Position numbers and translations under genes: made by a program. Positions 2,334 to 45,486 of a stretch of DNA of 64,000 nt are shown here, piece after piece. The stretch is taken from assembly GCA_973895155.1 (NCBI GenBank), contig OZ316899.1:8249241-8313240 (forward strand). Direction: 5' to 3'. Within the stretch, counting starts at the first letter, position 1, and each line of letters starts with the position of its first letter. This DNA comes from Marsupella aquatica (lineage: Eukaryota; Plantae; Marchantiophyta). The notes under the pieces are model-generated. The model had not been told where the DNA came from and searched no databases. It saw only the letters and a program-made list of their open reading frames with translations.

Positions 2334-2663
2334 CGGAGGGTTAGGCTTAGAATAGACTTAGGAGTAGCTAAAACAGGCTGGTAGGAAAGTGCCGGCCAGA
2401 AGATAGCGGCGCTGACACATTAGCTAGCCTGTGTAGAATAGGTTAGACTAATAGGACAAGCAAGCACCAACTTAGCAAGGATATAAGTTAGCGTAGATTT
2501 GGGCACAACGTCAGGCCGGTCCTCAGCCCTTAGTATTTAGCGGCCCCCCCAGTAGAGGTTAGAGAGGGGGATTTTAGACTCAGAAGTTGGCCATTCACAG
2601 TACGTACGGGGAGTCCCAAACTTGGTGAAGTACCGGAGTACCAAGGGGAGGGTATACGACTAA

Positions 2664-4273: not shown

Positions 4274-4840
4274 TAAGCTCACTGGGCAAGTGCGGAGCCG
4301 GGCTCCGTTGTAGTGTATACTCCTTGGCCTTGGGCCCGGTCGTTCACGAGGTGTCGAGTCAACCAATCGTAAAGTGTATGATCATAAATGAATGAAATCC
4401 TTTCTCCTTAATTCCTTCGTGTAAATCGTGATTTCTATTATGTATGTATGCATGTATGAGTCTCGTGTGCAAGTATCAATGTTGGGCCGAACATGTTATG
4501 CCAACCGTGCACGGGGTGCAGGATACGGGTACGGGGTTGCGAGCCCGGGTTGAGCTCTTGTACTAACGGATCCGGATCAAAGGCGGTAACACAAAGGCTT
4601 AGAAGTCCGTGAGCCGGGGTCGACCCCGGGTCGACTAAAGTATGTTCCGGCGGCGGAACACAAACTATACCTAGGAGGTGTTTGTACATAATAATAAGCG
4701 CACTTAGCGCTAGTTTATGTGAATTAGGAGCATTCTGTGCGTCCCTCCCTGCTTGAACCCTCATATTCACAAAGGATGTGCCTATCTAAGCCAAAGCCCG
4801 GGTTAAGGCCTAGGCTGACGATGTGACATAGCCTTTTTTT

Positions 4841-4858
4841 TGGCGCTAGATGGAGGGG
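4841..4858 (+). other. Primer-binding site of element A, probably tRNA-Asn
   Basis: TGGCGCTAGATGGAGGGG, one mismatch to the complement of the plant tRNA-Asn(GUU) 3' end as I recall it (CCCTCCTTCTAGCGCCA); identical motif at 45333. Confidence 0.8.
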
Positions 4859-4956: not shown

Positions 4957-7090
4957 ATGCCCGTCACCCGATCTCAAGCCGCTTACTTGAGAAGATTGAC
5001 CAGCGAACGAGAGAGTGCGGCGACAACAAGCTCCAAATCCTCAAGCTCGGAGGATTTGCTATCGCCTTGACGAATGAACATGCCATCGGGACCTTCGGGG
5101 TCCGGACCAGCGGTCCTGCTCCGGTCCCTGCTGCGCCACCGCTAGCAGTACCAATGGCAGCAGTCCCACCGGCTATGGCTTGCGCTGCCCAAGCTCCCCC
5201 GCAAGTATCGCAACGGTCACGGTTTCATTATTGACCTTTCAAAGGGCGTCATGGGGATGATCCGGATGAATGGTTGGATGAATTTGAAGCCACTGCTAAG
5301 GCCAATGGGGAAGAGGCCATTAAGCTAACCATCCTCCCCGGTGTGATGCGGGGGGAAGCTCGTCCATGGTACAACTTGCTGCCACCCGGGACTACATGGG
5401 CACAATTCCAAGCTGCGTTGCTGCAAGAGTTTTGTGCCATTGGATCAAAGCAACGTTCTTTATTAAAGATTGGCCGGCTTTGCATGGGAAAGAAGGAATC
5501 CTTGCAAAATTTCATTCAGAAGTTTCAGAAACTTAATTACTGCCAAGATCCGGCCCAGGCCAGGGGATGCGCTCCAGCTTACGTGGTTTCTCCATGGTTT
5601 GCCCACGAATATGCAATTTTGGGTGCGCCAAAATAACCCGATTTCAATGCAAGTGGCCATAGCATGCGCCGAAACCTACCGGGAGTCCACTTATAACTCT
5701 CGGCAAAGTCAACGGGCACGCCGACATAAGGGCAAATACAAAACCTTCAGTGATAGTGACTCCAAATCGAACGACAAGAAGAAGAAGAAACGCAAGAAGA
5801 GGAAGAAACATCGTTCGACCTTGTCTAGTTTGGAGACGGAATCTAGTTCTGATTTGACTTTGACCAGCGGACCCTCCACTTCCAACTCATCGGGAAGTGA
5901 TTTGGAGAGCAAGAGCCAGAGCAAGAAGAAGAAGAGGCAAGCTAAGAAGGAAGAGAAGGTCAAGCCTCATGTTCGACGAACGATCCCCGATCCAAAGGCC
6001 GCTGAAGCAGACAAGCTCAATGAAATTATGGATCGTCTCAAAGCATTGTCGGTACACCTTGCGGACAAGCCCGTGGAGAAAAAGAAAACTTCCAAGACCC
6101 GAGCACACGCATGGTGCTCCAAGTGTTTCCAATCCGGTCACGTGGTGCAAGAATGCCCGCGATGGAAGAATAGGGTCCATCAGGTGTAATTGGAGGACGC
6201 TGACAGCCCGGGGCCAGAACCGGAGTCCACCAAATACTTCTTTGAAGACGCCACGGATTCTATCTACCAGATTTCCACGATGGGTCCACGCAACTTAGCT
6301 GGTAGAACGGCCTACCCTTACCCAAACAATGGCAGGAATGTCCAGGTTATGAGTAACCTGAGCATTCCTCCTAAACCCGGGATTTGGTGATCCCCAGTTT
6401 GTTACAATTGTGAGAAGCCGGGTCACTTTGCCAGGGAATGCACCGAGCCAAGACGGCAGGGAGATGGCCGGGGCACTCCACTATGTCAAGTTTGCAAAAC
6501 TAAGGCCCACTCCACGGCCAATTGCCCCTTGGTGATCGCTACCTAAGCAAGCGCAGCCAGGCCGGTCCTGGGAGGTCCTGCTACTAACCATGTCGTCGTA
6601 CAAGTGATCGCTGTAGAATGGCAAGATGATACCACGGAATGGGTGAACCTGGTGGATGTGGTGGAACACCCGAACCTGTCGGACAAAGTCAAGTGCTACT
6701 GCATGGCGACTCGCACCGAACGAAAGCAAGAGAAATAGGAAGAGAAGCATTGGAAGAAGCAAGATACTACCCCAGTGCAGCCAGTAGTAGAAATCTCCCC
6801 AAAGGAGGATGACGACTACCGACAAGACAACCCAAAGCTATTCTTCCCCGTATCAAAGAATTGGTTTAGAAGCAGTTGGAGGCTTATGAAGCACGCAAAT
6901 ACCAGAAGGCTATCGACAAGGATATCAAAGCAGCTGAAGCCGCCCAACAACAAGAGCGGGAGAAGCAACAGGAGGAAGCCCAACAGCGTCCCAAGGAAGA
7001 GAAGAAGGAGGACTACAATATCCGACAAGACGTGAAAAGTTGCCCGGTCACGGCAATAGTAGGGCAATTACTGCACAATAACCCTCAGTA
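4957..7090 (+). pseudogene. gag: gag of element A (capsid-like region, lysine/serine-rich linker, three zinc knuckles), with stops and frameshifts
   Basis: MPVTRSQ start; DDPDEWLDEFE...GEARPWY capsid motif; CSKCFQSGHVVQEC, CYNCEKPGHFAREC, CQVCKTKAHSTANC. Confidence 0.88.
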
Positions 7091-10000
7091 TTGACAACAA
7101 GGCAGTTACTCACGGGTCGACGACGAAGGCGGCTACCACGGGTAGGGACGGCAGATTGCAACATGATCTGCGAAGACCTAGGGGCGCCGGACATATCTAT
7201 TGAGATAAACAATTGCACCATTAAGATGGTTGACCGTGGCGCGGGAGTCAACATCATGACTGAAGAAACGTCGATCAAGCTGGGATATCTCACGTATCAA
7301 CCCACTGCCCGAGCCATCCGATTGGCTAATGGGGCACGGGTCCTTCCCTTAGGCACGCTCACGCGGGTGCTCACTCTTGTGGGGGGCGTTGAGTTCTACC
7401 TCAACTTCCTAGTCATGAGGCCGGTGAGACCATCCTCTTATCCAGTTCTGCTGGGGAGACCATGGCTATACGGGGGCAACGTAGTCACGGATTGGGGAAA
7501 GAAAGAGTTGCAATTTGGAACACCCACCGTGCGAGTGTCATGGGCCTTGGATGACTATGAGGGAGAGACACCACAGGGGCCGGAGGAATATGATTCAGAG
7601 ACCTCGGAGGAAGAAGAGCCCAACATGATAGAGCTCATTTCATCTCTTTCCGAGGAAGATATTTTCAGAATAGAGGCAACACGAGACACCCATCTCATGA
7701 ACTACCCAAAGGAAGACACGTGCGACCTCAACCCGAATTCCTCTAACCTCTCAACTAAGGTGCAGCCCGCCCAAAGTCTCAGCCCAAAGGACACACAGAA
7801 TGTAGCTCCAGCTAAGCAGGGAGCTGAAGCCATTATGCATACCATCAACCCCTCAGGAAGCGAGGCCACCACGACCTCAGCCAAAGCCAAGATTTTGGGC
7901 CCCAAGCAAAGGAAGCAAGTATCCTGGGACCTGTCTATCCCAATGGAAGAAGATGTGGTCGCAGCACCAGAGTCAAACCCTACCCCGCCGACGTACGGAG
8001 GAGTCCGCTTAGCAGAGCTAGACACTAGCCTGGACCCAGGCTTGCGTAATCAAGTAGAAGTCATCAGGAAGGAGCACTACCGGAAGTACACCACGGGGAT
8101 GGATAAGACGTTCAATTTAGGCCACGCCTTGACGGGTGAGACCAAGAAATCCATTCAGTCACTGCTCAAGGAGTATGAGGATGTGTTCGCATGGAGCCAT
8201 CATGACCTGACGGGTATCTCTCTCAAGCTAGGAGAACACACGATCAACCTGAACCTAGGTGCACACGCGGTACGGCAGCGCCAACGGCGTATGAAACTGA
8301 GATATTCAATCTTGGTAAAAGAAGAGATCGATTGTTTACTGGCCACGGATATCATTTACCCGGTAATGGCAAGTGATTGGGTATCTCCCATCGTCATCGT
8401 GCCAAAAAAGGGAGGCACGGAAGGGAAGCCAAAAATCCGCATTTGTCAAGATTATCGTAAGCTGAACAATGCTACCCAAAAGGACCACTATCCGTTACCA
8501 TTCACGGACATGGTTCTGGATATGGTAGCCCGGAATGAAATCTATACCTTCCTTGATGGCTATTCAGGCTACAACCAGATTTGGATCCGCCTCTTGGATC
8601 AGCTAAAAACCACGTTCACTACCGAGTGGGGGACATTTGCATTTCGAAGGAAGCCCTTCGGGCTGTCTAACGCCCCGGCCATGTTTCAGCGGCTCATGAT
8701 GAATATTTTCCATGATTTCTTACGGGAGTTTTTGGAAATATTTATCGATGACTTCGCCATCTTCAGAACGGTGGCCATGCACCCCAAACACCTACAATGT
8801 ACTCTATAGCAATGCCGGGAAGTTAACCTTAAGCTCCACCCAGGCAAGTGTTTTTTTGGGGTAGAAGAGGGAGTGCTGCTCGGCCATCGGGTATCCAAAC
8901 GGGGTATTGAAGTGGACCAGGAGAAGGTAGCAGCCTAGATGCCAGTAGTGTTTCCAGTAGATCAAAAAGTTGTAAGGTCTTTTCTAGGCTGTGTCGGGTA
9001 CTATCGCCGGTTCATTAAAGACTTTGCCAGAATTGCATTGCCCTTAACGGAGATGATGAAGAAGGACGCGGTGATCAAGGAGACACCCCGGAGATGTATT
9101 GCTTTCAAAGAACTCCATAAACGACTCACCACCGCACCTATCATGGTCACCCCGGACTGGAATAAAGAATTCCATGTGTATGTTGATGTGTCCGGGTTCT
9201 GTATTGGGTCCGTGCTCAGTCAGGTTGATGAGAACGGATGTGACCACCCCATCTACTTCGCTAGCCGTCAACTATTTGCAGCCGAGAAAAACTATTCTCC
9301 GACTGATCAAGAAGCTCTAGGTATTATCTACTCATGTAAGAAGTTCCGACACTATCTGCTTGGTTATAAGGTCATATTCCACACGGATCATGATAGCCTA
9401 AGTACATGGTAAACAAAGCAGATGTCACGGGACGGATAGCCCGGTGGGTGTTACTACTGCAAGGGTTTAATTACAAAGTATGGGTTTGACCCGGGAAGGC
9501 ACACCTCAACGCTGATTTCTTTTCAAGACTGGACGGAGTACCGGTTGAGCAACCCATTAACAACACCTTCCCCAATGAGGAATTGTTCCACATCGGGACG
9601 GGAGCGCCAACGTGGTATGGGCCAATCATTACGTTTTCCTTCTGACTGGGCGTATCCCTGACCGCATCAACCAGGAAGCTGCCGCTGTATTCCTTTGAAA
9701 GGCGGGGCCATACATCATGATATGGGGCCACTTACACAAGGAAGGAATTAACGGGAAAATACGACGCTGCCTGGACTACAAAGAAACTCTCATTGTGATG
9801 CGGGCCTTGCATGAAGAGGAAGTAGGAGGCCATTTTGCAGCTATCACCACCGCCCGGAAGATTCTCAACTCAGGGTATTGGTGGCCCACGTTGCATAGGG
9901 ATGTGCAGCGCTTCATCAAGGGCTGTGACCTGTGTCAGCGGGCTGGGGCCCCAAGACGAGCTCATCATCACCCCCTCACGTCAGTACCTCCCTTAGCACC

Positions 10001-10235
10001 TTTCGAAAAGTGGGGTATTGATTATATCGGGCCGTTCACTCCCGTTACCCAAAGATGAAGATGCAGGTACATCCTATTAGCTATAGATTACTCCACGAAG
10101 TGGGTCGAAGCACGGGCTACGGTGAGGGACGATGCCGCCACAAGCGCCCGGTTCTTATACAAGTAGATCTTCACCCGGTTTGGGCCAACCTTGGAATTAG
10201 TAAGCAACCGTGGAACACACTTCCTCAATGATACC
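7091..10235 (+). pseudogene. pol: pol of element A: aspartic protease, reverse transcriptase, RNase H, integrase N-terminal half
   Basis: PR (VDRGAG...VLLGRPWL); RT (SDWVSPIVIVPKKGG, DYRKLN, LDGYSGYNQI, IFIDDF); RH (VYVDVSGFCIGSVLSQ, NYSPTDQEAL); INT HHCC (HEEEVGGHF...CDLCQ) and WGIDYIGPF; several stops. Confidence 0.95.
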
Positions 10236-13200
10236 TGTGATGCCTAGCCAAGAATCACTAGGCCAGTTAAGTGGGGAAATGGAGGTGTACCCTATAAACA
10301 CATTAGTATAGTAACAAAAACAAGGAAAATATAAACAATTAGGGTGACTATGGAACCCGGGCTGAGGCCAGAGGTAAGGACGTCGGGGGAGAGAACACGA
10401 TTAGGGTTAGGGTGCGCTAAGCATCGGCGGCTAGGGGTAACCAACAGGAGGAAAGACCAGAGGAGGAGAGGGGTAAGGACCGCTCGCGAGGAATGGTGGC
10501 TCATTTGCAAGCACGAACTGGGCAGACGACTATGGAAGGCCAACTATTGTCAACTGCTTAGGCAAACACTCTGGGCGGGAGCAGATACCAACGATCGAGT
10601 CAAGGAGGGTATGAGCAACGTCAATCAAGCGGCACATTTTTGGGGATGCCTGTTCGAACGGGCAACTGAGTACATTAGGACTTACGAGAATGAGGAATCG
10701 GAGAGAGCAGCTCAAGAACGGCAGGAGCTCGCTCGATTGTGGGAGCTGCAGAAGTCTACCTTCTTAGAAGGAGAACTCATCAAGGCCGAGTTCTTGTGGA
10801 CTCCTACTGCCAATCAACTCGATGACCTTATGTTTTGCGAAGACAGAATCGTCGGCATTCGGGAAGCCATCAACCGTTGCAACGATGTGCACTGGGAGTT
10901 AAAGGGTAGCACGAAGGGGTGGACAAAGGCAACTGTGCTAGGAGAAACATCCACGGCAGCCGAGATGAAGAGGAAAGGAAACAACAACGAAGAGGCCACC
11001 TCGGAAAAAAGGCCGAGGCCGGGACAACCAGTAATGAAGCCGAGGTACAAGAAGAAAGAACAAGGTCGGCGGCACCAAGGAAGCCAGCAGAGTAGCAGAA
11101 CAGGAGGCAGGGAGAAGCCGAAGAGGAGGAGGTCGATCCCATCAATGCCATTCCAACAAAGGATGACACCTGGAAAGGCTGGGCGGCAACCCTACCAGAG
11201 GAAGTGCAATTACATTTTGCACGGGAGGAGGATGCATGCTTTACGGCCATGCAGACCAAGAAGTACCAGGGCTTCATGGCCGGATCCGGCTTGGAAGCCT
11301 TCGTAAGATTACCATGGCTGAAGCCGGAGGTGCCGGACTCAGACTTATTAGAATTTGTGGGATCATGGGAACCCGAGACCAATTCCACGAGGGTGTATGG
11401 GAAGGATTTCTATCTCACTCCCCGGGTGATTGCCAAGGTGTTTGGCTTGCCGATGGGTAATAAGACCAAGGTTGATACCAGGAAGACCTTACCTGACAAG
11501 GAGTTCCGATCGTTCCCAGGACCATCAACAAAGAATGGCTTCTTTCGGAACACTTGCACCAACCCGCACATCGGAGAGATGATCGATTTCTTGCGGGTGA
11601 CCATGCATTGTAACTTGCCGAGGGCAGAGATCGGCAAGGCTCAGGTCTACCTGGCAGAAAGGCCAGACCCAAGCCCGGATTACAACGGGTACCTCCTCAA
11701 CCAATTGAAGAAGATCTTGAAGGAGGAACAGCAGGTGACCGGTGTGGGAAGCGTGTCCCAACTTGACTATCACATGCCGCTGTTGTGCCGGTATGCCAGA
11801 AGTCAAATCTTTGCCCCAGTACTTCCCCTATCGGCAAGGGCACCGGAGGAGGTTTCGGAACAGAGGCCGGCAACAGAAGAGCCCAACCAGCCTGCCAATC
11901 TTACGATCGAGCAGGTGTTTCGGCCAAGGAAAGAAGACTTGCCGATGCAACAATCAGGCATGCAGAATCTGTTGAAATTGCTGGAGAAGGAGAAAACGGC
12001 ACCGGCAACGGCAATGGCAACGGCACCGGTACAGGACACTGCCCTAGAGGCCGGCCTAAGCCGACTCAGGAGGGAAAACCCCTTTACTGGAGCCAACAAG
12101 AAAAGGAGGCCGGAACACAAGCCAGGAGTTTGAATGTATGTGGGAGCCTCAAGCCCCAAATCGAAGGCAGAGTAGCCTAAGGCTCCTTCCCGTGGAAAGC
12201 AGAGGGAGAGGACAGCCTGGAAACCAGAGGAGGAACCAGAGCCCATGATCTGTGAGGCCGTTTTTACAGCAGGACCAGGGGAACGGAGGGGGAAGTCAGG
12301 AGTGCAAGTAGTGGAGGAGGCAGTGGAGGACTACAGCAATGATAACTCCGGCTATGGGTCGGATCATCATGTTCCAGGAGTACGGACCTATGGCCGGTTT
12401 ATCCCCACGCTTCCAAGAGTAGTTTGAGGGGACCCCACCCAGCAGAGTAGCCCCGAGTCTCCCCCACCAGAGGTTGCTCCCCTGAGCTTTGACGGCATAA
12501 AGCAGACTACACAAGAATTTCAGGAGCGACTTAGGGAGGAAGAGAAAGCAGTCCTGGCTAGGGAGAAAGATTTACCAGGAGGAGATTGGCCGGAGGACAT
12601 CAGGAGGCTTTCCAAAAAAAGAAGCAACCCTCTTGCCACCGTAGAAGAAATCGGCAAGGCGGCTTGGGAACAGAGGCCGGGGTGGTTGATGCCGATGACT
12701 TCTACTTACTCCACCTATGCTAAAGATAGAGCCATGGAGTACGGGGAGATGTGTGGGGACCTGGCGCTCAGCATCTTTGGGGAGGAGTTGGAGCAGGGAC
12801 CTTTTTTCCAGAGGGAGATGTTGGAGAAGCACCGATTAGAAGAAGCGGTGGCTTTGGAGAGAAGCAAGAAGGACGAGGTCATCCGACGGCTTAGGGAGAT
12901 GGAAGCCGAGGTGGAAGACCTGCAGGCGGCCAAGAAAGCCCAAGATGAGCTGCGGATTAAGCGACATGAGCTAAACATCATGCAAGGACAATTGGATGCC
13001 GCTCAGTCTGGCAATTAGATTATCAAAGATAAACTGACTCGGACCCAAGGAGAGTTGGTCGGCGCGGTCAAGGACAGGGAAAAGTGGAAGCAGGAGCTGA
13101 GGGACGCAGAGGAGGCCCACATAACCGCCAACAACCGGGCCATGGCGGAGACTCAGAGAAGGGAGAGGGCGTTGAAAGGAGAGCTCGAGGATATCCGCGG

Positions 13201-15006
13201 AGCCCTTGAGCACAAGGAGGCCGAGTTAGGGAAATCCTATCAAGGGATTATTGCGCTGCAGCAGGAGCTTGCGTCCCTGACGGCCAGCTTCAAGGCCGAC
13301 CTGCGTGAGAAGGATGACCAGCTTGACCAGACTTATGCCAAGATGAATAAGATGGAGTCTGAGGTCGTAACGGAGCTCGACAAGGAGCTAAGAGCAACCC
13401 AAGAGGAGAGGGCTACCTTAAAATTGGAATTGGAGGAAGCCAGAAAGGAGCTGCAGGAGGGACGGAAGGACCTGGAGGAAGCCCAGGAGGAGTTGGAGGA
13501 AACCACCAGGAAGATGGAGAACTTACAGCGGCAGGCCGACAACCAAACGGAGCGGCTGAAGAAATAGGCCGCAGTATTTAAGTGCTTAGCTTCATCTGGT
13601 CCAATTCCAATTGTGGAAACTCCGTTACCAGGAGGGGTACTGGCCGAAGGACAAGCCCAGACACACGCCCCGGTGCCGGAGGGTAGCAAGGGGAAGGGAC
13701 CAGCTACCAAAATAGGGAAGAAGAAGAAGCGGAAACCTTCTGGGTCTGGGAGTTATACGGCTTACCAAGCAGTTGTGACCCAGGAGGTCAACCCCGCACC
13801 AACCTCCGGCATGGTCACGACAGTAGATCCACCTATTGAAGAAGGTGGGGATGGCAAGGCCGAGGCCGGGACAGCTATTGATGAAGCCGAGGTACCGGAT
13901 CCTCCACTAGAACATGCCGAGAAGGCCGAAGCCGTATCGAAGGCCGTGACCGATGCTGAGGCCGAAGCCAAGGGTGGACCCAGTCAAGCCGATGAAGAGT
14001 TGACTTGGTCCGGGGCAGGTAATCTGTCAGGGGACGGACCAACGGCAGTGGCTGCGGGGGAAGCGTTGGGAGCGTCCATTGAGGATCCGCCACCGGTGTC
14101 ATGACGGTGCAAGGGCGCCGTTCCTTTTAGGAAGGACGGACGTGGAGGTAGGAGGCGTGAGTGGGCAGGGCGGGCTCAGATCTCCAAGTTTAGGATTAGG
14201 ATCAAGACCAGGAGACGGCCCTTACACTTAGATTAGTGGGATGGCGGATCCACTGGTAGGAGCAACACTTGTGCTCCTGCCTCATTGTACAATTAGGTAG
14301 ATTACAGGTAGGATAGATTAAGCTTACGCAGCGAAGTTCTGGACAGATCCGCTGCCAGGATGAATACCTGGGCAGCGGGGAGTCTAGGGCCTCTTCTTTA
14401 GCAAGTTTTTAGTTGCACCAGCAGGGCTGGGATCAAGTAGTAAGAGAAGCTCTCGGTTAGTTATACAGTGACCCTTGTGTATATTCATGTTTCCTCATGC
14501 CTAAGAACTGAATAGAGTTGGCCTCACGGCTTAGTTCGCAGAGCTTGTGTATGAGATGTACTGTTTGTATGGCAAGTGCATGGTATAACTCAGTCAGAAG
14601 GAGTCATTTTGCTATTTGTGTGTCGCATTAACTTGTGTGAAGAGTGCCCACATCAATGAAGGGAAGTAGCAAGGGAGTGAGAGTTGGATGTGTCGAGCTG
14701 AGAGAGATCTTAGCGGCTTAACCAAGCCAATTGGGGATCATTCCGGCGGTGGAATCCAAACATACCTAATGGAAGACCAGGAGAGGAATACAAGGGAAGG
14801 CCTAGAATAGGCCGGCTAAGTATCTCATGACCCGATGAAGGATCTATCCAGTATATGTGTGTAAAATGTTAATAGTAGCAGAAGGAGAGTTAGTAGCGTC
14901 CCATGCTGCTAAGCCGCGGAAATGGCCTTGTCGAGGACAAAACCTGCGGGAACTGGCTTGAGCAAGGGGGTTTTCTTGGGTTTGGGGAGCAATGGGACGC
15001 ACCACA
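10236..15006 (+). mobile_element. Family-X solo LTR, complete, 4771 bp, protein-coding
   Basis: Starts TGTGATGCC, ends GCACCACA; perfect 5-bp TSD ATACC (10231-10235 and 15007-15011); removing it restores the host integrase frame GTHFLNDT-IARLTERY; the same 3' end is followed by a PBS at 45328. Confidence 0.95.
10350..14104 (+). pseudogene. X-LTR-encoded protein, consensus ~1250 aa: helical N-terminus, plant-transposon/PMD-like domain, long coiled coil, acidic low-complexity tail
   Basis: ORF pieces 10344-11306, 11204-12133, 12686-13018, 13055-13567 and 13613-14104 join into one frame using other copies (e.g. TGA at 12131 is CGA in copy 4 and CAA in copy 3); motif LPW...LLEFVGSWE...RVYGKDFYLTPRVIAKVFGLP. 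Confidence 0.85.
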
Positions 15007-15063
15007 ATACCATAGCACGGCTTACGGAGCGTTACCTAGTCAAGCACTACAAGACTACCCCGT
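15007..15063 (+). pseudogene. 57-bp piece of element A integrase core between two insertions
   Basis: Encodes (D)TIARLTERYLVKHYKTTP, bridging 10235 and 18324. Confidence 0.9.
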
Positions 15064-15922
15064 TGTCGCGAGGACTTAAAGTTAGGGGCTCCTCGGGCAA
15101 ACTATGCATTTCTGGCTGCGATCGGGACAAGTAACAAGCACTTTTCGGAGCGAACTCTCACTCCTTTATATATATATTTTTACTTTTCTCACAAAGGTTA
15201 CAATAGGTGCCCTAGAGTAAGCTTGCCGGCTTGCAAGAGTCTGGTAGTTGGCCCTACGGCGGGCCGCTACCCCTAACTTGTCGAGTAGAACTCCTCGAGT
15301 GACTAACTACTCAAAATCTGACGGAAAAACTATCCTCCTTAGCTCACAAAACCAAAAACTTGACTAGCTACTCCACTAGTCTAAAACAGCTCGCACGGAA
15401 CTCCGGCCTGGACCAACGAGGCTCCAAACTCGAGAAATCCTTGCCTGGATCGACAAGACTCCAAACTTGAGAAATCCTCGCCTGGATAAACGAGACTCCA
15501 GACTCGAGAAATTCCCCGTCTGGATCAAAAACTCCCCACCTGGATCGAAAACTCACTCAGAACTCCAAAACCGCCACACAATAGTCGAGTTCCGCAGAAC
15601 GGAGCGGAACTCACAAAATGCAACTCAACAGATCTCAATAGACAACTGCCAACCTCAATGAGCTGATGCTCAAGTCTTAAGTAGCATCGGAAACCCAACC
15701 ATCCAGCCTGAGCCAACTGCCAGCAGCGAGGCTCATCTAAACTCCAAGTCTGGTGACTCACCCAAACACCAAACCTGGTGACGACGAGTCACCCAATCAC
15801 CAAACCTCAATCCATCCAACCAAGCAACCCCTCCGAGTCAACATGCACGCAACCCAACCGGGAGGCCTTACCCATCATCCCCTATAAAAGCCATTCCTGA
15901 GCCAAAATCTTTCGGCATGACA
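15064..15922 (-). repeat. 3' LTR of element B (contains ~37-bp internal tandem repeats near 15420-15560)
   Basis: Highly similar to 17471-18323; adjacent TCCTCCCCC (15923-15931) is the PPT on the minus strand. Confidence 0.93.
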
Positions 15923-15967
15923 TCCTCCCCCAGTAAACCTGAGCAGCCTCCGGTCTGCTCCAATCGA

Positions 15968-17310
15968 TCAGATTTCCTCTAAGTCTGAGTCCAAACTTGA
16001 GCCATGCGCCTGGGCCACTTCCTCCTCAAGAAACTCAAACCCAAAGCCTTCAGACTCGGCCTTAGGCACTCCACTTTCCAGAAACTCGAAGTCCAACTCA
16101 TCCGAATCAGAACCAGTAAAGCCACTTTCAAAACTCAAGTCCAACGGATGCGCCTGGACTAGTGCCTCGTCTTCAAATTCACTCAAGTCAGACCTTGAGT
16201 CCATTCCCTTCTCGGTCCTCCTCTTGAAGATCTTCACCCTTTTCGCTGCGTAAGGTACTTGGTGAACTGTTCCATCCAACTCCCGAATAGTGTAGGTTGC
16301 ATTCGCATGAATAGCAACCACCACATACGGACCTTGCCACATCCGAGCAAACTTGTTTTGGCTCAAGTGTTGCTCGTCCAACTTACTTTTGTAAACCAGA
16401 ACCCAATCCCCTTCCTTAACCAAGACAGGCCTCAACCGATGAGTCCTGTCGAACCTGCCCTTGTTCCTTAACCTCGCCATCTTCAATTGCTTCCAAGCCA
16501 CCTCAATCTTTGCGGGTAACAAGTTGAAGTGTTCGATCCTTTGAGCAGCAACTCCTCTCTCAAAACTTCATCTTTCCATCCAATCAATTGCCAGCTGCAA
16601 ACATCTTCCTCGAGTGGCATCATCGGCAAGTGCCCAGTAAGTAGCTCAGCCAGAACGTATCCGGTCACTGAGCTACAAGTCATCCGATCCGCTAACAGAG
16701 CAAGTGGAAGGAGACTCGACCACCTGCCCAAGTCCCCATCACAAGCCTTAGCCAAAGTGCCCACAATCTGGATGTGCCCCCTTTCAGATTTCCCAGTCCT
16801 CAACCCTTTCCTATTCCTCCCGTTTCCAGGTAAAATAGCCGGAAATTGAACCACCTCTTTCCCATCTTTGCTCCGAACCTTCACCATGAAGGTAGTATCA
16901 TCCAGAACCTTCGTCTCCATCCTCCATTCAGTGATGAACGGCATTCCCAGTATCACCGGAAATGACAAGTGCTCATGAACAAAAATGTTTCAAGCCTGCT
17001 TGACATTCCCGAACTTCACCATCACATTCGGACATCCGCCCCAAAGATAGTCCTTCATTGAACTCACCGAGTTCACACTCCAAAGCAACTCCTCTTTCAT
17101 CTTTTGGTCAAAGTCATCCCAGCCCTCAGCTGACTCAACGATGGTCCGCACCGTCGAACTCAACTCCTTCTCAACCAGCACCATGAACTCTTTCACGGCC
17201 GTCCCTTTGTCCAACTTGTAGACAGCTGCTTCTGTCAAGTAAGACTTAAGGTAGCTTGTCACATTTCTCCCATCGAACTCCCATTCTCTTTCAGAACCTC
17301 TTGAAGACAC
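15968..17310 (-). pseudogene. Fused gag / protease / integrase remnants of element B
   Basis: FDGRNVTSYL gag-like start; FPVILGMPF protease end; LPLALLADR...TGY and GDWVLV...WQGPYVV integrase C-terminus; no RT or RH. Confidence 0.85.
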
Positions 17311-17451
17311 CGAGTAGTTCTATTCGCTTCCCTGTTTGCCCTTTCCGACTCAAGCTCTTCCTTCCTTATGGTTCTCATCATCGACATGACGATGCTCGAT
17401 ATCCAATTGACTTCATCATAGTCACCCATCTCATCCAATCGCCCCAAGGAA

Positions 17452-17469
17452 TCCCCAGTATGGTCGCCA
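17452..17469 (-). other. Primer-binding site of element B, probably tRNA-Arg
   Basis: Minus strand TGGCGACCATACTGGGGA, 1 nt inside the LTR; resembles the Arg-type TGGCGAC...CTGGGGA PBS. Confidence 0.7.
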
Positions 17470-17470
17470 A

Positions 17471-18323
17471 TGTCGCGAGGACTTAAAGTTAGGGGCTCCT
17501 TGGGAAAACTAGGCATTTTTGGCTGCGATCGGGACAGGTGACAAGCACTTTTCCGAGCGAACTCTCACTCCTTTAAATTCTTTTTTTCTTTTCTCACAAA
17601 GGTTACAATAGGTGCCTTCGAGTAAGCTTGCCCGCAAGAGTCTGGTAGCTGGCCCTACGGCGGGCCGCTACCTCTAACTTATTGAGTAGAACTCTTCGAG
17701 TGACTAACTACTCAAAATCTGACGAAAAAACTATCCTCCTTAGCTCACAAAACCAAAAACTCGACTAGCTACTCTACTAGTCTAAAACAGCTCGCACGGA
17801 ACTCGGGCCTGGACCAACGAGGCTCCAAACTCGAGAAATCCTCGCCTGGATCGACAAGACTCCAAACTTGAGAAATCCCCGCCTAGATCAACAAGACTCC
17901 AGACTCGAGAAATTCCCCACCTGGATCAAAAACTCCCCACCTGGATCAAAAACTCACTCAGAACTCCAAAACCGCCGCACAACAGTCGAGTTCTGCAAAA
18001 CAGAGCGAAACTCACAGAACGCAACTCAACAGATCTCAATAGGCAACCGCCAACCTCAATGAGCCAAGGCTCAAGTCTTAAGTAGCATCGAAAACCCAAC
18101 CATCCAGCCTGAGCCAGCTGCCAGCAGCAAGGTTCATCCAAACTCCAAGCCTGGTGACTCACCCAAACACCAAACCTGGTGATGATGAGTCACCCAATCA
18201 CCAAACCTCAATCCATCCAACCAAGCAGCCCCTCCAAGTCAGCATGCACGCAACCCAACCGGGAGGCCTCGCCCATCATCCCCTATAAAAGCCATTCCTG
18301 AGCCAAAATCTTTTGGCACGACA
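17471..18323 (-). repeat. 5' LTR of element B
   Basis: Direct repeat of 15064-15922 with TG/CA ends, adjacent to the PBS. Confidence 0.93.
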
Positions 18324-18950
18324 CCGTATCATCCTAAAGCCAACGGGCTGATGGAGAGAGCCAACGATATCATAGGGAAGATCCTCAACAAGACGGTAGC
18401 CGCGCACAAAACGGATTGGGATGATAAGTTGTACGCAGTGGTGTACTCATATAATCTAGCTTACAAGACTACTACAAGTCACAACCCGTACTTTCTCAAG
18501 TTCGGCCAACATTCGTTGGTCCCCATTGAGTTCGAAGTACACACTCCACGAGTCAGCATTTGAGATCGCTTACCCAAACCCGAAAGTTTGTCAGACCGAG
18601 CTTATCAGATTGAAGCCTTAGAAGAGGCATGACTACTGGCAGCTTGACACACCGTGAAGCAACAGGCAGCTTCCAAGAAGCAGCACAACAAAGGACTATG
18701 GAAGATCGACATTGTGATGGGCGATCTAGTCCTGCTGTACGATAGTAGGTACATGCAATTTCCGAGGAAGCTTCATACCCGTTGGTTAGGGCCTTTCCTA
18801 GTCAATCAAATCTACCCTAACGGATCTTTGGAACTTGCAACATACGCCGATGATTTACTCCCCACGCGAGTCAATTACAATTGTGTGAAGAAGTACTACC
18901 ATTTAGATGACGATGCCAATAGTGATGTTTGCGAGGACGCTTCACAATTA
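18324..18950 (+). pseudogene. Integrase C-terminal half of element A (no chromodomain)
   Basis: YHPKANGLMERAN...DWDDKL, GDLVLLYDSR...KLHTRWLGPF (GPY/F module). Confidence 0.92.
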
Positions 18951-18962
18951 AGTAGGGAGCTA

Positions 18963-21818
18963 TGTGATGCCGCTGGTACAGTGGGTAATGAGTGATTTGG
19001 CCTAACGACGCTTAGCACGCACGTTAGGGGTATCTTAGGCCGTAATTATTAGCATAACGACAGTATTTAGATAGCCATTATGAGTAGGAAATCATTAGTC
19101 AATAAGGGGCGTTCATGTTCGGGCTGGTGGCGGGTCGCCATTCGCACGCCCGGGTTGCGAGCGTGTAATGGGCCCTCCACTCTTTCCCCTTGGGTCCGTA
19201 TAACAAAAATTGGGAGGCGGCCACTGACATGCGCTGACCCGGAGTGGCCGATACACTACGAGCATGAAAGGCTCGGCCTATAAGCAACAAGGAGGCGACA
19301 AGCGATCGACAAGCTCTCAGGGTATAAAAAGGGGGCCGATCCTTTGTAGTGCACCAGTTCTTCAGCCCACGCGCCAGCTTCGACCCCAGTTCTCTTGCTT
19401 ATCCTTAGTTGCCTTCCATCTCCTCTGAATGTCGGACACGATCCTTTCCAGTTTGGCCATACAATTTTGGACGCAATTCCTGTCTATCGGAGGGCACTTG
19501 GCCGACTCGTTGAAACACACCAACCCGTGACAATATAAGATTGAACGCGAGTACGAGAGAGCCATCCGCCTAGCAGGCCGCCATCACTATCTCCTTATTA
19601 CTTTGATTACCCATCCCAGATTGAGCTTTACCAACCCAAAGAAATATCAGGGTACTTTGATGGAGGCAAATATATCGGCTTCTGGGAGGCATTGCTTTGG
19701 CTCCCGGACGAGGTCTTCAATATCTCAGGCACGATCAACTTACAGCAGCACCATTTTGACCACATCCCCGCTCGGGTCTGGGACATCATCAACAGCAAGT
19801 CCAGCGCTACCCGATCTACAAGGGCGTCTACACTTGCATCAGAAAACCTCTACCGGCACCTACAAAATTTCATGGCAACCACACCATCGACCACCGGTGC
19901 CAGCCCAGCCGTGCCCGCACCAGCACCAGCTCAGGCTTAGGCTCCGCCTGAGCTTAGCCAACCCCCGCCACCAGTGGCCCCGCCCCTACAGGTGAGATCG
20001 GTCATCAACGCTGTGGACCTCAGCAACGACAAAGAGGCTACCTTACCCTTGCTCAGGCGGCCTAGAGGAGAAAGTACCCAGGGAGCCGGCACTACATCGC
20101 CCCTTCCCCAGGCCCGGACCAGAGTAGCGGCTCCAGAGGACAACACGGTGACCGTAGCCGCCCCGGCCCCAATACTAATGGCGGTGGCACTACCTACACC
20201 CGATCGAGAGGATGGGGAGGTGTCACCCTCCCCGAGCCAGTCTCGGGGAAAGAAGAGGAAGGAACTCGCAGCTATATCTGGGCTACCCATGGCCACGGTA
20301 GCCGCGGCCAAGGTAACAATGCACCGCATGGGGAAAAAGGTGCATAAGAACATCCTCCACCCCAAACATGCGGTGTACTCGAAGACTCAAGGGTTCAAGC
20401 ACCTCGCCTCCCTCCCCTGGAACACCTGCAGATCTACGAGGAGGACATGACGGAGTCGTCAAGAATTATGACAACGTCCGTCAGCATACTTGGCTGCGGG
20501 GGAGGAATATGTCCCTCACAGAGGAGCGGCTCAGGATGATCTTTGGGCTACCCGAGGGCGATCACCGAGTCGAGTCACGAGCTCCCGAGGGCAAGGGAGC
20601 CAAGTACCAATCCTTGAGTTTTCCCTCCGGGGGGTCAGTGGACAACGGGTTCGTGATGAGGACCTGCCTCATCCCCGAGATAGTTGAGCGACTGGAGTTC
20701 CAGAGGTACGCCCTCCACATGATGGAACCCCGGGGCGAGATCTCCGCTGCCCAGGTTATCCAGGTCAAGAACTATCGACCTAGGAAGTGGGCTTCGTACT
20801 TCGCTAAGAAGTTCCATGAAGAGATGGAGCGGCGAAGGAAGTCGCTATACATTGGCGAGAAGGCATATTTTGGGAGCCACATCGAGATCATTCTCGAGTG
20901 GTACGCCCGGTTTGATCGACGAACCCTTCCCCGGGTCAACGTAACTAAGTTGGTCCCGACTAAGTGGATCTTCCCGGCCTTGGAGAGACGGCCTCAACCC
21001 GAGGCCTGAAGTCTGGCGGCGACGCAGGCCTCACCCATCCAACCTCCACAGGTAGCGGTAGCCGTGGCCGAAGAAGTACCGGAAGAGGTAGTGATTGCAA
21101 CCTTAGACGCGATCAACCAGGCCGGGCCTGGTGCAGAAGTTGGGGCGGTGGAGGCCTTGCCCAAGCCCGAGGGTCCAGAAGACCCACTAGTGGCTATTCC
21201 AGAGGACGGCCCGATGGTGGAGGAGGACACTCCAGCCCCTTCCAATACTACATCCCCAGGGCTGGATGTCACTACCCCGGCTCCCACGCGAGTTAACGTC
21301 TGCCCGTGCCCAACTCCAGACGGGCATAACCTGGACCACCCGGAACTCTTCGTATCGAGTACATTTCTAAGTGGGCTTTTGGGTTCTCCTTAATTCCTTA
21401 ATTCCTTTGTGTAAATTGAGATTTCTGTTATGTATGTATGCATGTATGAGTCTCGTGTGCAAGTATCAATGTCGGGCTGAACACGTTATGCCAACCGTGC
21501 ACGGGGTGCAGGATACGGGTATGGGGTTGCAAGCCCGAGTTGAACTCTTGTACTAACGGATCCGGATCAAAGGCGGTAACATGAAGGCTTAGAAGTCCGT
21601 GAGCCGGGGTCGACCCCGTGTCGACTAAGGTATGTTCCGGCGGTGGAACACAAACTATACTTAGGAGGTGTCTGTACATAACAGTAAGCGCACTTAGCGC
21701 TAGTTTACGTGAATTAGGAGCATTTTGTGCGTCCCTCCCTGTCCGAACCCTCATATTCACAAAGGATGTGCCTGTCTAAGCCAAAGCCTGGGTTAAGGCC
21801 TAGGCTGACGACGTGACA
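18963..21818 (+). repeat. 3' LTR of element A, 2856 bp, with a probable internal deletion near 21384
   Basis: Begins TGTGATGCC (same 9 nt as the X LTR) 2 nt after purine-rich AAGTAGGGAGC; TATAAAAAGGGGG at ~19323; ends GACGTGACA like the 5' LTR. Confidence 0.8.
19429..21300 (+). pseudogene. Protein encoded inside element A's LTR; diverged homologue of the X-LTR protein
   Basis: LPW...WLRGRNMSLTEERLRMIFGLPEG...DNGFVMRTCLIPEIVERLEFQRYALHMMEPRGEISAAQV aligns by eye with X LPW...RVYGKDFYLTPRVIAKVFGLPMG...KNGFFRNTCTNPHIGEMIDFLRVTMHCNLPRAEIGKAQV; start position uncertain. Confidence 0.8.
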
Positions 21819-24713: not shown

Positions 24714-24779
24714 TAAAATATGAGAAGTAGAAAAAAGTCCAACACTCTAGTGAACTTCATGGTAGAAAAGTACGCCTCT

Positions 24780-32190: not shown

Positions 32191-32194
32191 TCCT

Positions 32195-35100
32195 TACCCC
32201 TGGTAACTGGGTTCCACCAATTGGAGTTGGACCTGATGAAGCCAAGCATTTAAATACTGTGGCTTGTGTCTTCAGCCGCTCCGTTTGGTTGTCGGCCCGC
32301 CGCTGTAGGTTCTCCATCTTCCTCGTGATTTCCTCCAACTCCTCTTGGGTCTCGTCCAGGTCCTTGCGCACCTCCTCTAGCTCCTTATTGGCTTCCTCCA
32401 ATTCTTTTTTCAAGGTAGCCCTCTCCTCCTGGGTTGCTCTTAGCTCCCTGTCGAGCTCTGCGACGACCACAAACTCCATCTTATTCATCTTGGCATAAGT
32501 CTGGTCGAGTTGGTCGTCCTTTTCACGCAGGTCGGCCTTGAAGCTGGCCGTCAGGGACGCAAGCTCCTGCTGCAGCGCAATAATCCTTTGATAGGATTTC
32601 CCTAACTCTGCTTCCTTCTACTCAAGGGCTCCGCGGATATCTTTGAGCTCTCCTTTCAATGCCCTCTCCCTTCTCTGGTTCTCCGCCATGGCCCGATTGT
32701 TGGTTGCTAAGTGGGCTTCCTCTACATCCCTTAGCTCCCGCTTCCATTTCTCTCTCTCCTTGACTGCGCCGGCCAACTCTCCTTGGGTCCGAGTCAGTTT
32801 ATCTTTGATAATCTGATTGTCAGACTGAGCGGTATCCAACTGCCCCTGCATGATGTTTAGCTCATGCCGCTTAATCCGCAACTCATCTTGGGCTTTCTTG
32901 GCTGCCTGCAGGTCTTCCACCTTGGCTTCCTTCTCCCTAAGCCGCCGGATGACCTCGTCCTTCTTGCTTCTCTCCAAAGCCACCGCTTCTTCTAATTGGT
33001 GCTTTTCCAACATCTCCCTCTGGAAAAAGGGTCCCTGCTCCAACTCCTCCCCAAAGATGCTGAGCGCCAAGTCCCCACACATCTCCCCGTACTCCATGGC
33101 TCTATCCTTAGCATAGGTGGAGTAACTAGAAGTCATCGGCATCAACCACCGCGGCCTCTGCTCCCAAGCCGTCTTGCGGATTTCTTCTACGGTGGCAAGA
33201 GGGTTGCTTCTTTTCTCGGCAAGCCGCTTGATGTCCTCCGGCCAATCTCCTCCTGGTAAATCCTTCTCCCTAGCCAGGACTGCTCTCTCTTCCTCCCTAA
33301 GTCGCTCCTGAAATTCTTGTGCCATCTGCTTTATGCCGTCAAAGCTCGGGGGAGCAACCTCTGGTGGTGGAGACTCGGTGTTACTCTGCTGGGTGGGGTC
33401 CCCTCGAACAACTCTTGGAAGTGTGGGGATAAATCGGCCACAGGTCCTTACTCCTGGAACATGATGATCCGACCCATAGTTGGAGTTATCATTGTTGTAG
33501 TCTTCCATTGCCTCCTCCACTACTTGGACTCCCGGCTCCTCTGCCTCTGATTCGGGGCTTGAGGCTCCCACGTACATTTGCACTCCCGGCTTGTGTTCCG
33601 GCCTTAATCTCTCCTTGGTTCTGGTAAAGGGGTCTTCCCTTCTGAGTCGGCTTAGGTCGACTTCTGGGGCAGCGTCCTATATCGGTGTCGTTGCCGTTGC
33701 CGGAACCGTTCTCTTTTCCTTCTCCAACAATTTTAGCAGATTTTGCATGCCTGGTTGCTGCATCGGCAAGTCTTCTTTCCTTGGCCTAAACACCTGCTCG
33801 ATCGTCGGACTGTCGGGCTGGTTGGGCTTCTCTGGTGCCGGCCTCTGCTCCGGGACCTCCTCCGGTGCCCTTGCCGATAGGGGAAGTACTGGGGCAAAGA
33901 TTTGACTTTTGGCATACCGGCACAACAGCGGCATGTGATAGCCAAGCCGGGACACGCTTCCCACGCCGATCACCTACTGTTCCTCCTTCAAGATCTTCTT
34001 CAGTTGGTTGAGGAGGTACCCGTTGTAATCCCGGCTTGGGTCTGGCCTTTCTGCCAGGTAGACCTGAGACTTGCCAATCTCTGCCCTCGGCAAGTTATAG
34101 TGCATGGTCACTCGCAAGAAATCAATCATCTCTCTGATGTGCGGGTTGGTGCAGGTGTTCCGGAAGAAGCCATTCTTCGTTGATGGTCCTGGGAACGACC
34201 GGAACTCCTTGTCAGGTAAGGTCTTCCTGGTATCAACCTTGGTCTTATTACCCATCGGCAAGCCAAACACCTCAGCAATCACCCGGGGAGTGAGATAGAA
34301 ATCCTTCCCATACACCCTCGTGGAATTGGTCTCGGGTTCCCATGATCCCACGAATTCTAACAACTCTGAGTCCGGCACCTTCGGCTTCAGCCATGGTAAT
34401 CTTACGAAGGCTTCCAAGCCGGATCCGGCCATGAAGCCTTGGTACTTCTTGGTCTGCATGGCTGTAAAGCATGCATCCTCCTCCCATGCAAAGTGTAATT
34501 GCACTTCCTCCGGTAGGGTCGCCGCCCAACCTTTCCAGGTGTCATCGTTTGTTGGAATGGCATTGATGGGATTGACCTCTTCCTCATCGGCTTCTCCCCT
34601 TGTCCTGCTCGGCTGCTCTACTGGCTTCCTAGGTGCCGCCGACCTCGTTCTTTTTGCCGGGGTGGCCTCTTCGTTGTTGTTTCCTTTCCTCTTCATCTCG
34701 ATTGCCGTGGATGTTTCTCCTAGCAAGGTTGCCTTCGTCCACCCCTCCGTGTTACCCTTCAACTCCCAGTGTAGGTCGTTGCAACGATTGATGGCTTCTC
34801 GGATGCCGACAATTTTGTTTTTGCAAAACAGAAGGTCGTCGAGTTGATTGGTAGTAGGAGTCCACAAGAACTCGGCCTTGATAAGTTCTCCTCCTAAGAA
34901 AGCCGTCTTCTGCAGTTCCCAGAGCCGAGCGAGCTCCTGCCGTTCTCGAGCTGCTCTCTCCGATTCTTCATCCTCGTAAGTCCTGACGTACTCACCTGCC
35001 CGTTCGAACAGGCATCCCCAAAAATGTGCCGCTTGATTGACATTGCTCATACCCTCCTTGAGTCGATCGTTGGTATCTGTTCCCACCCCGAGTGCTTGCC

Positions 35101-35428
35101 TAAGCAACGGACAGCATTTGGCCTCCCATAGTCGTCTGCCCAGTTCGTTCTTGTAAATGAGCCACTATTCCTCACGAGTGGTCCTTACCCCTCTCCTCCT
35201 CTGGTCTCCCCTCCCGTTGGTCACCCCTAGCCGCCGACGCTTAGCGCGCCCTAACCCTAATCGTGTTCTCTCCCCCGGCGTCCTCACTTCCGGCCTCGGC
35301 CCGGGTTCCATAGTCACCCTTAATTGTTTATATTTTCCTTGTTTTTTGGTCCTATACTAAGGTGTTTCCAGGGTACACTCCTGCTTACCATGTAAACCGG
35401 GCTTAGTGATTCCTGGCTAGGCATCACA
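32195..35428 (-). mobile_element. Family-X LTR copy 3, 3'-truncated, with its ORF (ATG 35311)
   Basis: Minus strand begins TGTGATGCCTAGCC at 35428, inside GFMAD of transposase 2; ORFs 33974-35107, 33677-33973, 32618-33583 and 32177-32488 match copy 2; homology stops at ~32195. Confidence 0.92.
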
Positions 35429-44600: not shown

Positions 44601-45328
44601 TTGTGCTCCTGCCTCGTTGTACATAGGTAGATTACAGTCAGGTTAGATTAGGCTTATGCTGCAAGGAATTGGGCGGATCCACTGCCAGGATAAGTACCTA
44701 GGCAGCGGGGGGTTCAGGGCCTTCTTCCTTAGCAAGTTTTTAGTGCAGCAGCAGGGCTGGGATCAAGTAGTTAAAGAAGCTCTCGGTAGTTATGCTGTGA
44801 CCCTTGTGTATATTCATGTTTCCTCATACCTAAGATGAATAGAGTTGGCCTCATGGCTTAGTTCGCAGATCTTGTGTATGAGAAGTACTGTCTGTATGGC
44901 AAGTGCATGGTATAACTCAGTCAAAAGAAGTCATTTTGCTATTTGTGTGTCGCATTAACTTGTTTGAAGATTGCCCACATCAACCAAGAAGGGAGTAAGC
45001 AAGGTAGTAAGAGTTGGATGTGTCGAGTTGAGAGAGGTCTTAGCGGCTTACCCAAGCCAGTTGGGGATCATTCTGGCGGCGGAATCCAAACATACCTAAA
45101 GGAAGACCAGGAGAGGAGGACAAGGGAAGGCATAGAAGAGGCCGGCTACGTATCACATGACCCGATGAAGGATCTGTCCAATATATGTGTGTAAAATGTT
45201 AGTAGAAGGAAGTTAGCAGCGTCCCATGCCGCTAAGCCATGAAACCGGCCTCGCCAAGAGCAAAACCTGCGGGAATCGGCTTGTGCAAGGGGGTTTCTTG
45301 GGTTCAGGGAGCCATGGGACGCACCACA
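41649..45328 (+). repeat. Family-X LTR copy 4 acting as the 5' LTR of D (first ~350 bp missing; ~690-bp internal deletion near 43536)
   Basis: Colinear with ~10590-15006; deletion joins GGAAGAGAAA to TCCTATCA through GAAA microhomology. Confidence 0.92.
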
Positions 45329-45332
45329 TTTT

Positions 45333-45350
45333 TGGCGCTAGATGGAGGGG
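45333..45350 (+). other. Primer-binding site of element D (tRNA-Asn-like)
   Basis: TGGCGCTAGATGGAGGGG, identical to 4841-4858. Confidence 0.85.
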
Positions 45351-45486
45351 GCATTTCTTAAGCCGTGAGATATGAAGTTAGGAAGCAGCGTAGGTAATGA
45401 CTGAACCTACGTCGAGGGAGGAAAGAGCAATTCAACAGGAGAGAGCTCGTTTGTAGCAGCTCGCCGGGTGGCATGATACACAGCAA

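Follow-up and report, generated by a model that had tools for sequence, protein, structure and literature searches.

A solo long terminal repeat in the liverwort Marsupella aquatica with a probable gene for a predicted VANC/plant-mobile-domain-like protein

Long terminal repeats (LTRs) are normally non-coding DNA. The extra open reading frames (ORFs) of Athila/Tat (OTA) Ty3 retrotransposons of plants comprise the env-like frame of Athila, the plant mobile domain (PMD) of Ogre, TRP28 and SMC in Retand, gene23 in Grande and ORF0 in Retrosat2. Coding sequence in LTRs is known from the U3 genes of vertebrate retroviruses, namely MMTV sag and the overlapping frames of nef and foamy-virus bel, which span about 1 kb or less. 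Here, we describe a unit of 4,771 bp from a 64-kb stretch of DNA of the liverwort Marsupella aquatica (contig OZ316899.1, 64,000 nucleotides, hereafter called the window), which, judged from its sequence, is a solo LTR and very probably contains a gene under selection.

In the accessible portions of the literature, to which all statements on cited work below are limited, Athila/Tat LTRs are given as up to about 5 kb long (PMC6317226), and the extra ORFs of these elements are internal, located either ahead of gag or in the stretch from pol to the 3′ LTR (PMC7264820, PMC6317226, PMC11963269, PMC3485330). VANC proteins are described as dicot-specific, MAIN-like and borne by Mutator-like elements (MULEs), and together with Athila-domain proteins they have been modelled as coiled-coil oligomers (PMC13547354). 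VANC carries DUF1985, binds short motifs and removes methylation (PMC5735166). PMD-C is similar to DUF1985 and counteracts silencing by Polycomb (bioRxiv 2024.09.27.615353), and PMD-A is encoded by Gypsy elements (PMC5418596). An LTR retrotransposon, from plants or elsewhere, with a long gene inside its LTR was not found in the literature searched, to which subscription papers mostly do not belong; ORFs are not mentioned in the accessible part of PMC12885004, nor VANC in PMC13269885. With fair confidence, we favour the interpretation that the unit is the solo LTR of a likely Athila-like liverwort Ty3 element with an LTR gene, the product of which would be a VANC/PMD-like DNA-binding protein with a long coiled coil, whose likely role is to protect the element's own family from silencing.

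The unit, called copy A in the following, and its target site are located as follows.

10236..15006, + strand: copy A, a solo LTR of 4,771 bp with the ends TGTGATGCC...GCACCACA, assigned by its termini, the duplication and the lack of inner repeats
10231..10235, + strand: left target-site duplication ATACC, read from the sequence
15007..15011, + strand: right target-site duplication ATACC, read from the sequence

The TG...CA termini of copy A form a short inverted repeat (TGTGATGC / GCACCACA), and this single LTR is flanked on both sides by the 5-bp duplication ATACC. Copy A splits the integrase of a second element (the sister element, see below), whose frame reaches the left duplication and continues past the right one. 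The empty site is present in contigs from public sequencing runs, with 10232 joined to 15009 in runs X3 and X5 and 10233 joined to 15020 in runs X2 and X3 (two of the four runs each). Copy A holds no terminal direct repeat (none of its 16 short repeat families links both ends), no gag or pol family among the six long ORFs scanned and no primer site according to a window-wide pattern scan. A first-pass annotation made from the letters alone had listed the TG...CA ends, the ATACC duplication and the lack of gag, pol and an inner LTR pair, all of which are borne out by the sequence, the repeat and family scans and the empty site. Its reading of the unit as an LTR left behind as a solo LTR is upheld by the split integrase, by the primer site and gag following copy D, and by the 3′ LTR of the sister element.

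The 9-mer TGTGATGCC occurs at only four sites in the 64 kb, which are the 5′ ends of copies A, B and C and the start of the sister 3′ LTR. In the public-run contigs, the exact termini of copy A are also joined to other positions (5324>10236 in three of the four runs, 15006>12401 and 15006>11781), with short sides and a caveat for repeats, and the contig joints show copy-A-type units inserted repeatedly in sister-family or own-family sequence. Contig depth was 18-26 times that of sister pol for the unit and 3.3-5.9 times for the sister LTR ORF (three of four runs), and the depth ratio of tail to ORF was 0.89, 1.46 and 2.69 for the unit (two of three leaning to a commoner tail) and about 0.5 for the sister; these depths cannot rank the parts and are counted neither way.

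Four copies of the unit, A to D, lie in the window and are 82-91% identical.

32195..35428, - strand: copy B, 5′ terminus as in copy A, 3′ part cut by a MULE-like element, 4 stops in 1,039 codons
1..1845, - strand: copy C, 5′ terminus as in copy A, extending beyond the window edge
41650..45328, + strand: copy D, a 5′-truncated LTR with ORF, followed directly by primer site and gag
45333..45350, + strand: primer-binding site after copy D, by a pattern with 2 matches in the window against 0.01 expected
45380..48000, + strand: gag and protease belonging to the unit's own family, both broken, with 26-50% identity to their sister counterparts; pol is absent from the window

At the 3′ end of copy D, position 45328 is followed by TTTT, the primer site, a gag with zinc knuckle and a protease-like stretch. 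This order had been noted before, together with a 3′ end said to be identical to that of copy A; the order stands, whereas identity holds for the terminal bases only. Since copy D is 84% identical to copy A across the last 1.8 kb, its 3′ end is homologous. Copy D also contains several frameshifts and a 687-bp deletion. The primer site is putatively of the tRNA-Asn type; no tRNA genes were found in the window. Searching metagenome contigs with the primer-site pattern (20 bases) yielded four loci (L001-L004) within short dispersed repeats unrelated to the window or the domain profile, and no relative was obtained from scans of metagenome or viral contigs. Copies B and C have unrelated flanks, and no integrase or purine tract was seen ahead of the unit's 5′ end in its own family.

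Most of the unit is occupied by one long frame, which divides the LTR into the following parts.

10611..14104, + strand: accessory ORF inside the LTR, covering 73% of the unit with about 1,149 codons, broken in copy A
10236..10610, + strand: non-coding LTR leader, 375 bp, with TATAAA at 10330 and TTAGGG repeats, putatively promoter and 5′ untranslated region
11008..11054, + strand: 47-bp insertion private to copy A, resembling 13856-13895, causing a frameshift and not present in the other three copies
14105..15006, + strand: non-coding LTR tail, ratio of non-synonymous to synonymous substitution rates (dN/dS) 0.76-1.02 in three frames

In copy A, the long frame is interrupted by 6 stops over about 1,015 codons (at 11093, 12131, 12173, 12425, 13016 and 13565) compared with 24-40 in the other five frames, and the ATG at 10611 is kept in all four copies. 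Pairwise dN/dS of copy A against B, C and D was 0.19, 0.09 and 0.11 for the conserved core (11126-11830) and 0.25, 0.14 and 0.24 for 11126-14101, accompanied by a third-position bias, while shifted frames over the same two stretches gave 0.90-2.03. Over 10350-10996 dN/dS was 0.23-0.40. The synonymous to non-synonymous changes upstream of the ATG (10350-10610) are non-coding-like, with 6:16 and 6:22 and, for B versus C, 9:23, and those from 10611 on are coding-like, with 14:11, 24:16 and 21:17 and, for B versus C, 24:18; the contrast at 10611 has P=0.003 for A-C and P=0.08 for A-B. Therefore, the gene is assigned about 1,149 codons. The first-pass annotation had let a reconstructable ORF of about 1,250 codons run from 10350 to 14104, of which the long, selected frame proved real and the start did not, and copy A itself is broken by the 47-bp insertion and the six stops.

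On the internal branch separating A and B from C and D, 30 synonymous and 7 non-synonymous changes and 1 stop were counted in the 408 codons present in all four copies, which, in the dN/dS comparison proposed at the outset, speaks against a ratio near 1. Private changes (64:39) differ from shared ones (35:9) with P=0.054, a trend only, towards more non-synonymous private ones. On this evidence from sequence, the ORF is under purifying selection, and that the LTR contains a selected gene appears very probable. Selection can act only via replicating lineages; as all window copies have decayed and the private changes show this trend, solo copies would be at most a temporary reservoir.

A second, divergent case is provided by the sister element, in which copy A resides.

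4405..4828, + strand: remnant of the sister 5′ LTR, 93% identical to 21395-21818
4841..4858, + strand: sister primer-binding site, same sequence as 45333-45350
5070..18949, + strand: sister gag, protease, reverse transcriptase (RT), RNase H (RH) as well as integrase (INT), interrupted by copy A and a nested LTR element at about 15064-18323
18950..18959, + strand: purine tract AAGTAGGGAG, the putative polypurine tract, at the integrase end, 3 bp ahead of the 3′ LTR
18963..21818, + strand: sister 3′ LTR, 2,856 bp, TGTGATGCC...GTGACA, TATAAAA at 19323
19429..21393, + strand: broken ORF of the sister 3′ LTR with a homologous core at about 20390-21006, without the long coiled coil, start codon uncertain

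The core of the sister ORF is 29% identical to that of the unit ORF over 143 aa (E 7e-14). N-terminal homology of the two ORFs, plausible by eye, was rejected, as the alignment score of 26 compares with a shuffle mean of 26.8. The sister has no spacer between pol and LTR; the LTR starts directly after the integrase, and the ORF lies inside it. Hence two arrangements are observed: in the unit's family (copies A and D) the ORF lies between the TG terminus and the primer site, and in the sister it lies between the purine tract with TG and the terminal CA. In the Pfam scan the sister pol contained RVT_1, RT_RNaseH and Integrase_H2C2 only, in the order RT-RH-INT and with no additional RNase H. The RT of the sister shares 69% identity with a protein from Calypogeia; its tree position is within a clade of 15 rows (support 100/98), whose named members are all from liverworts, the nearest being from Calypogeia (92/96). 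The lineage is putatively Athila-like; in the tree, which had no lineage-labelled references, the clade could also represent Phygy or an unnamed lineage.

The protein encoded by the unit consists of a helical N-terminal segment, the conserved core, a low-complexity linker, a long coiled coil and an acidic tail.

10611..10940, + strand: N-terminal predicted helical segment, low-confidence model (pLDDT 49), no atlas match
11126..11830, + strand: conserved core, predicted VANC (DUF1985)/PMD-like fold, dN/dS 0.09-0.19, pLDDT 88
12851..13564, + strand: long predicted coiled coil with heptad 21-bp repeats, sub-threshold matches to coiled-coil families, dN/dS 0.18-0.29

No transmembrane helix was found in the read-through of the unit ORF (maximum 19-residue hydropathy 1.0). 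A profile of the core, run against 1.84 billion representative proteins, retrieved 60 relatives at E<=0.001; ten were looked up, and the four that carried a name all belong to Calypogeia fissa. The C. fissa proteins are CAM6082161.1, CAM6082530.1, CAM6105325.1 and CAM6090539.1. Several core relatives end in coiled-coil-like stretches. The structure model of the core, built from 48 sequences, reached a pLDDT of 88 and a pTM of 0.85. Compared by VIA-align with 48,161 chains, it matched VANC21 with Z 7.7 and a root-mean-square deviation (rmsd) of 4.8 over 211 residues, the only other row having Z 2.1, and a second comparison with VANC21 gave Z 8.1 (overall ranges: rmsd 4.6-4.8, 211-213 residues, identity 9-12%). 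A Z near 8 can reflect a common arrangement; here, the whole domain is covered and the match is single. By a separate method, a feature search of the atlas gave similarities of 0.90 to DUF1985 (152 of 256 features shared) and 0.89 to PMD, ranked behind unnamed plant clusters. These models suggest that VANC, PMD and the accessory ORFs of retrotransposons share one old fold that was already present in liverworts. The anti-silencing or targeting factor guessed at in the first-pass annotation thus gains in its former part from the modelled VANC21 match, itself of middling quality.

Other searches with the core were negative. Transposase_32 appeared in 3 of the 48 aligned members below threshold (best E 0.0058), and the core profile did not match a polyprotein bearing Transposase_32. 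PF10536 (PMD) matched none of the window proteins, and the list of 25 families for the 48 aligned members does not include it. A PDB sequence search with the core returned two chance rows only, the viral fold library contained no match to the core model at E<=0.001, and viral contigs held no relative of the core domain or of the RT. Word-index searches for long relatives found none, which is weak evidence. As a separate observation, two distant core relatives (proteins P0056 and P0057) have sub-threshold matches to DDE_Tnp_4 of the Harbinger type, a hint that DNA transposons might also carry the core domain.

Regarding expression, TATAWA boxes in both LTRs are found only upstream of the ORF (10293 and 10330 in copy A, 19323 in the sister) and not in the tails, and the leader TATAAA at 10330 is kept in all three copies that have the leader. 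It therefore appears likely that the gene has a promoter inside the LTR, which would probably be situated in the leader upstream of the ATG in both families. A bacterial-promoter scan, an irrelevant model here, was empty. The leader additionally contains three TTAGGG at 10335-10440, with two each in the leaders of copies B and C and none in the tail; telomere-like boxes are reported to recruit TRB/PRC2 in Arabidopsis (bioRxiv 2024.09.27.615353).

The following mechanism would be compatible with these features. Reverse transcription would copy the gene into both LTRs, and unequal LTR-LTR recombination would leave one gene copy behind as a solo LTR. The TATA-containing leader would drive the gene, so that a solo LTR, while still fresh, could provide its expression in trans before decaying. 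The predicted protein may, with a slightly better than even chance, oligomerise via its coiled coil and bind a family-specific DNA motif, as VANC does. We lean narrowly towards the view, suggested by the structural models, that it would act on chromatin, and there most likely against silencing of its own family. The arrangement likely originated through an upstream shift of the plus-strand primer, as far as the end of the integrase, by which the sense ORF between pol and 3′ LTR known from Athila-type elements, together with its promoter, would have become part of the LTR; this origin is proposed because the pol-to-LTR spacer is missing in the sister. A further-reaching proposal, which we put forward tentatively and consider possible rather than probable, is that the liverwort Ty3 LTR is a self-contained cassette of promoter and gene and that dispersed solo LTRs supply VANC-like, sequence-specific anti-silencing in trans to the remaining full elements. 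Two gene copies would be deposited with each insertion, and LTR-LTR recombination, by which the host mainly removes such elements, would produce the pool of solo LTRs.

Several observations weigh against the interpretation favoured here. Regarding the protein, the match to VANC21 is of middling quality (Z about 8, rmsd 4.6-4.8, 9-12% identity), the best Foldseek match, again VANC21 in the VANC21-DNA structure, is not significant (E 0.39, TM 0.41), and no Pfam family was found above threshold for the core domain. A shared modelled fold would not in itself show a function, and in the host proteins MAIN/MAIL1 this fold is used both for silencing and against Polycomb. The TATA boxes are consensus matches only, and a repeated target motif of the VANC type was not found in the non-coding parts (no 8-mer more than twice in four stretches, with the internal region of the family mostly missing). 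Regarding the element, integrase and purine tract of the unit's own family are absent from the window, an element with the gene at both ends was not seen in the 64 kb, and all four copies in the window are broken or truncated, because of which the earlier notion of a deletion-proof gene has to be called overstated. In the sister, the purine tract is short (9 of 10 purines), and the match of the 5′ LTR to the 3′ LTR is limited to the final 424 bp (93%), from right after the ORF stop. Since the shared 424 bp begin with a pyrimidine run instead of TG and no purine tract precedes them in the 3′ copy, the break is read as a later rearrangement; it is the main unexplained fact.

Taken at face value, the same break would be expected if the true LTR were the tail only (about 0.4-0.9 kb), the ORF an ordinary Athila-type ORF following pol and preceding the 3′ LTR, and the 4.8-kb unit a derived non-autonomous or aberrant insertion. 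A purine-rich stretch after the stop in copies A and D and the commonness of extra ORFs between pol and 3′ LTR would agree with this. We nevertheless regard it as distinctly improbable: besides the pyrimidine start of the shared 424 bp and the lack of a preceding purine tract, the start at TGTGATGCC, 375 bp ahead of the ATG, is common to three independent insertions, copy A has a perfect duplication and no inner repeat, and copy D has 3.7 kb of the unit, including the ORF, upstream of the primer site. Alternatively, the gene might lie in the U3 part of the LTR and be expressed from the 3′ LTR alone, through splicing or an internal transcription start as in retroviral U3 genes, the promoter being in the tail and the gene of a solo LTR silent. 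Long LTRs usually have their promoter near the 3′ part (U3-R-U5 order; textbook), the ORF is followed in the two families by 0.9 and 0.4 kb of non-coding tail, and all window copies are decayed; still, the restriction of TATAWA boxes to the upstream side in both LTRs and the leader TATAAA kept in three of three copies make this unlikely.

The function, too, might be a different one, such as integration targeting, chromatin tethering or self-repression. The PMD proteins MAIN/MAIL1 have been described as silencing factors (PMC5418596), only predicted DNA binding is reported for the TRP28 and SMC-like ORFs of Retand (PMC11963269), and the contig joints mentioned above repeatedly place the unit in sister-family or own-family sequence. 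Such nesting, however, would be expected wherever repeats are dense, PMD-C is described in later work as acting against Polycomb (bioRxiv 2024.09.27.615353), and the sole solved structure that matches is an anti-silencing factor, so that we rate this possibility as unlikely, slightly more so than the U3 arrangement. From the stops in every copy and the long low-complexity stretches it might be supposed that the frame is a piece of a captured gene in neutral decay, or that it arose by chance in repeat DNA rich in GC. Against this stand dN/dS of 0.09-0.25, the third-position bias, the internal branch with 30:7, the homologue in the sister LTR (29% identity), the 60 relatives and the confident fold; the probability left to it is minute, and the selection signal rules it out unless selection predates capture.

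If the favoured interpretation of an LTR-borne, selected VANC/PMD-like gene holds, it bears on annotation tools and on models of LTR turnover, which treat LTRs and solo LTRs as non-coding, as here a selected gene fills about 70% of the LTR, and this in two divergent families. The function of extra ORFs of plant Ty3 elements has long been open according to the accessible parts of reviews, and the structural link to VANC21 offers a specific, testable one. Should solo LTRs be expressed, removal by recombination would not abolish the counter-defence of the family. If the cassette proposal were true, a VANC-type system would be known for the first time from a retrotransposon and from outside the angiosperms, and a large protein-coding LTR for the first time from plants.

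Further features of the window adjoin these elements. Copy C is inserted in a region made up of the end of another coiled-coil ORF at 1846-2333 (+) and a subsequent non-coding stretch (2334-2660); there is a weak profile match (E 0.048), and the ORF may be the LTR-borne gene of a third family. The adjacent region 2660-4404, ahead of the sister 5′ LTR remnant, is AT-richer and unique in the window, and the 5′ LTR homology ends at 4402-4405. The nested LTR element at 15064-18323 lies in the sister integrase about 50 bp past copy A and has two 860-bp LTRs, 93% identical, with about 1.5 kb inside, in which no match to pol was found; its empty site is joined in all four public runs. Upstream of copy D, an unrelated open frame of 187 aa is present at 40985-41649 (+), with TGTCATACC at about 41012. 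The homology of copy D starts 20 bp ahead of the conserved ATG, and its leader may therefore be swapped or deleted. The MULE-like element at 28409-32190 (-), which truncates copy B at 32195, contains transposase-like ORFs (31026-32249 and 30205-31101) and a SWIM-type Cys/His motif (28409-29161), all recognised visually, as Pfam gave no match to them at E 0.01. At 24773-27931, repeats arranged in tandem or nearly so form three blocks, with units of about 400, 170-190 and 130 bp.

In comparison with known systems, the locus resembles Athila/Tat elements in the non-chromovirus-type pol without an added RNase H (seen in the sister), the 5-bp duplication, the large LTRs and an accessory ORF combining a PMD-like or Transposase_28/32-like domain with a coiled coil. 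It differs from them in that the unit ORF is located between the TG and CA termini and that the sister lacks the pol-to-LTR spacer, and from env-like ORFs in that the unit ORF has no transmembrane helix. With retroviral U3 genes it would share a coding frame duplicated in both LTRs, whereas its length of about 3.4 kb, the unrelated predicted chromatin protein and the plant retrotransposon as carrier set it apart. The plant mobile domain proteins (PMD-A; MAIN/MAIL1/MAIL2) are linked to it by the atlas similarity of 0.89, the published structural link between PMD and DUF1985 and the encoding of PMD-A by retrotransposons; unlike them, the unit protein has no PF10536 match, and in the accessible accounts their described range is the angiosperms and a position in an LTR is not reported. 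To VANC21 of VANDAL21, a MULE, the likeness consists in the predicted core fold, the DUF1985-like features, the coiled coil and the nature of a transposon-encoded accessory gene; the differences are the identity of 9-12% without a profile match, the location in a Ty3 LTR of a liverwort and the lack of tandem target motifs seen in the LTR. The gene of the unit would act in the manner of a VANC/PMD-type accessory gene; it is not VANC by its host element and not standard Athila by the position of its ORF.

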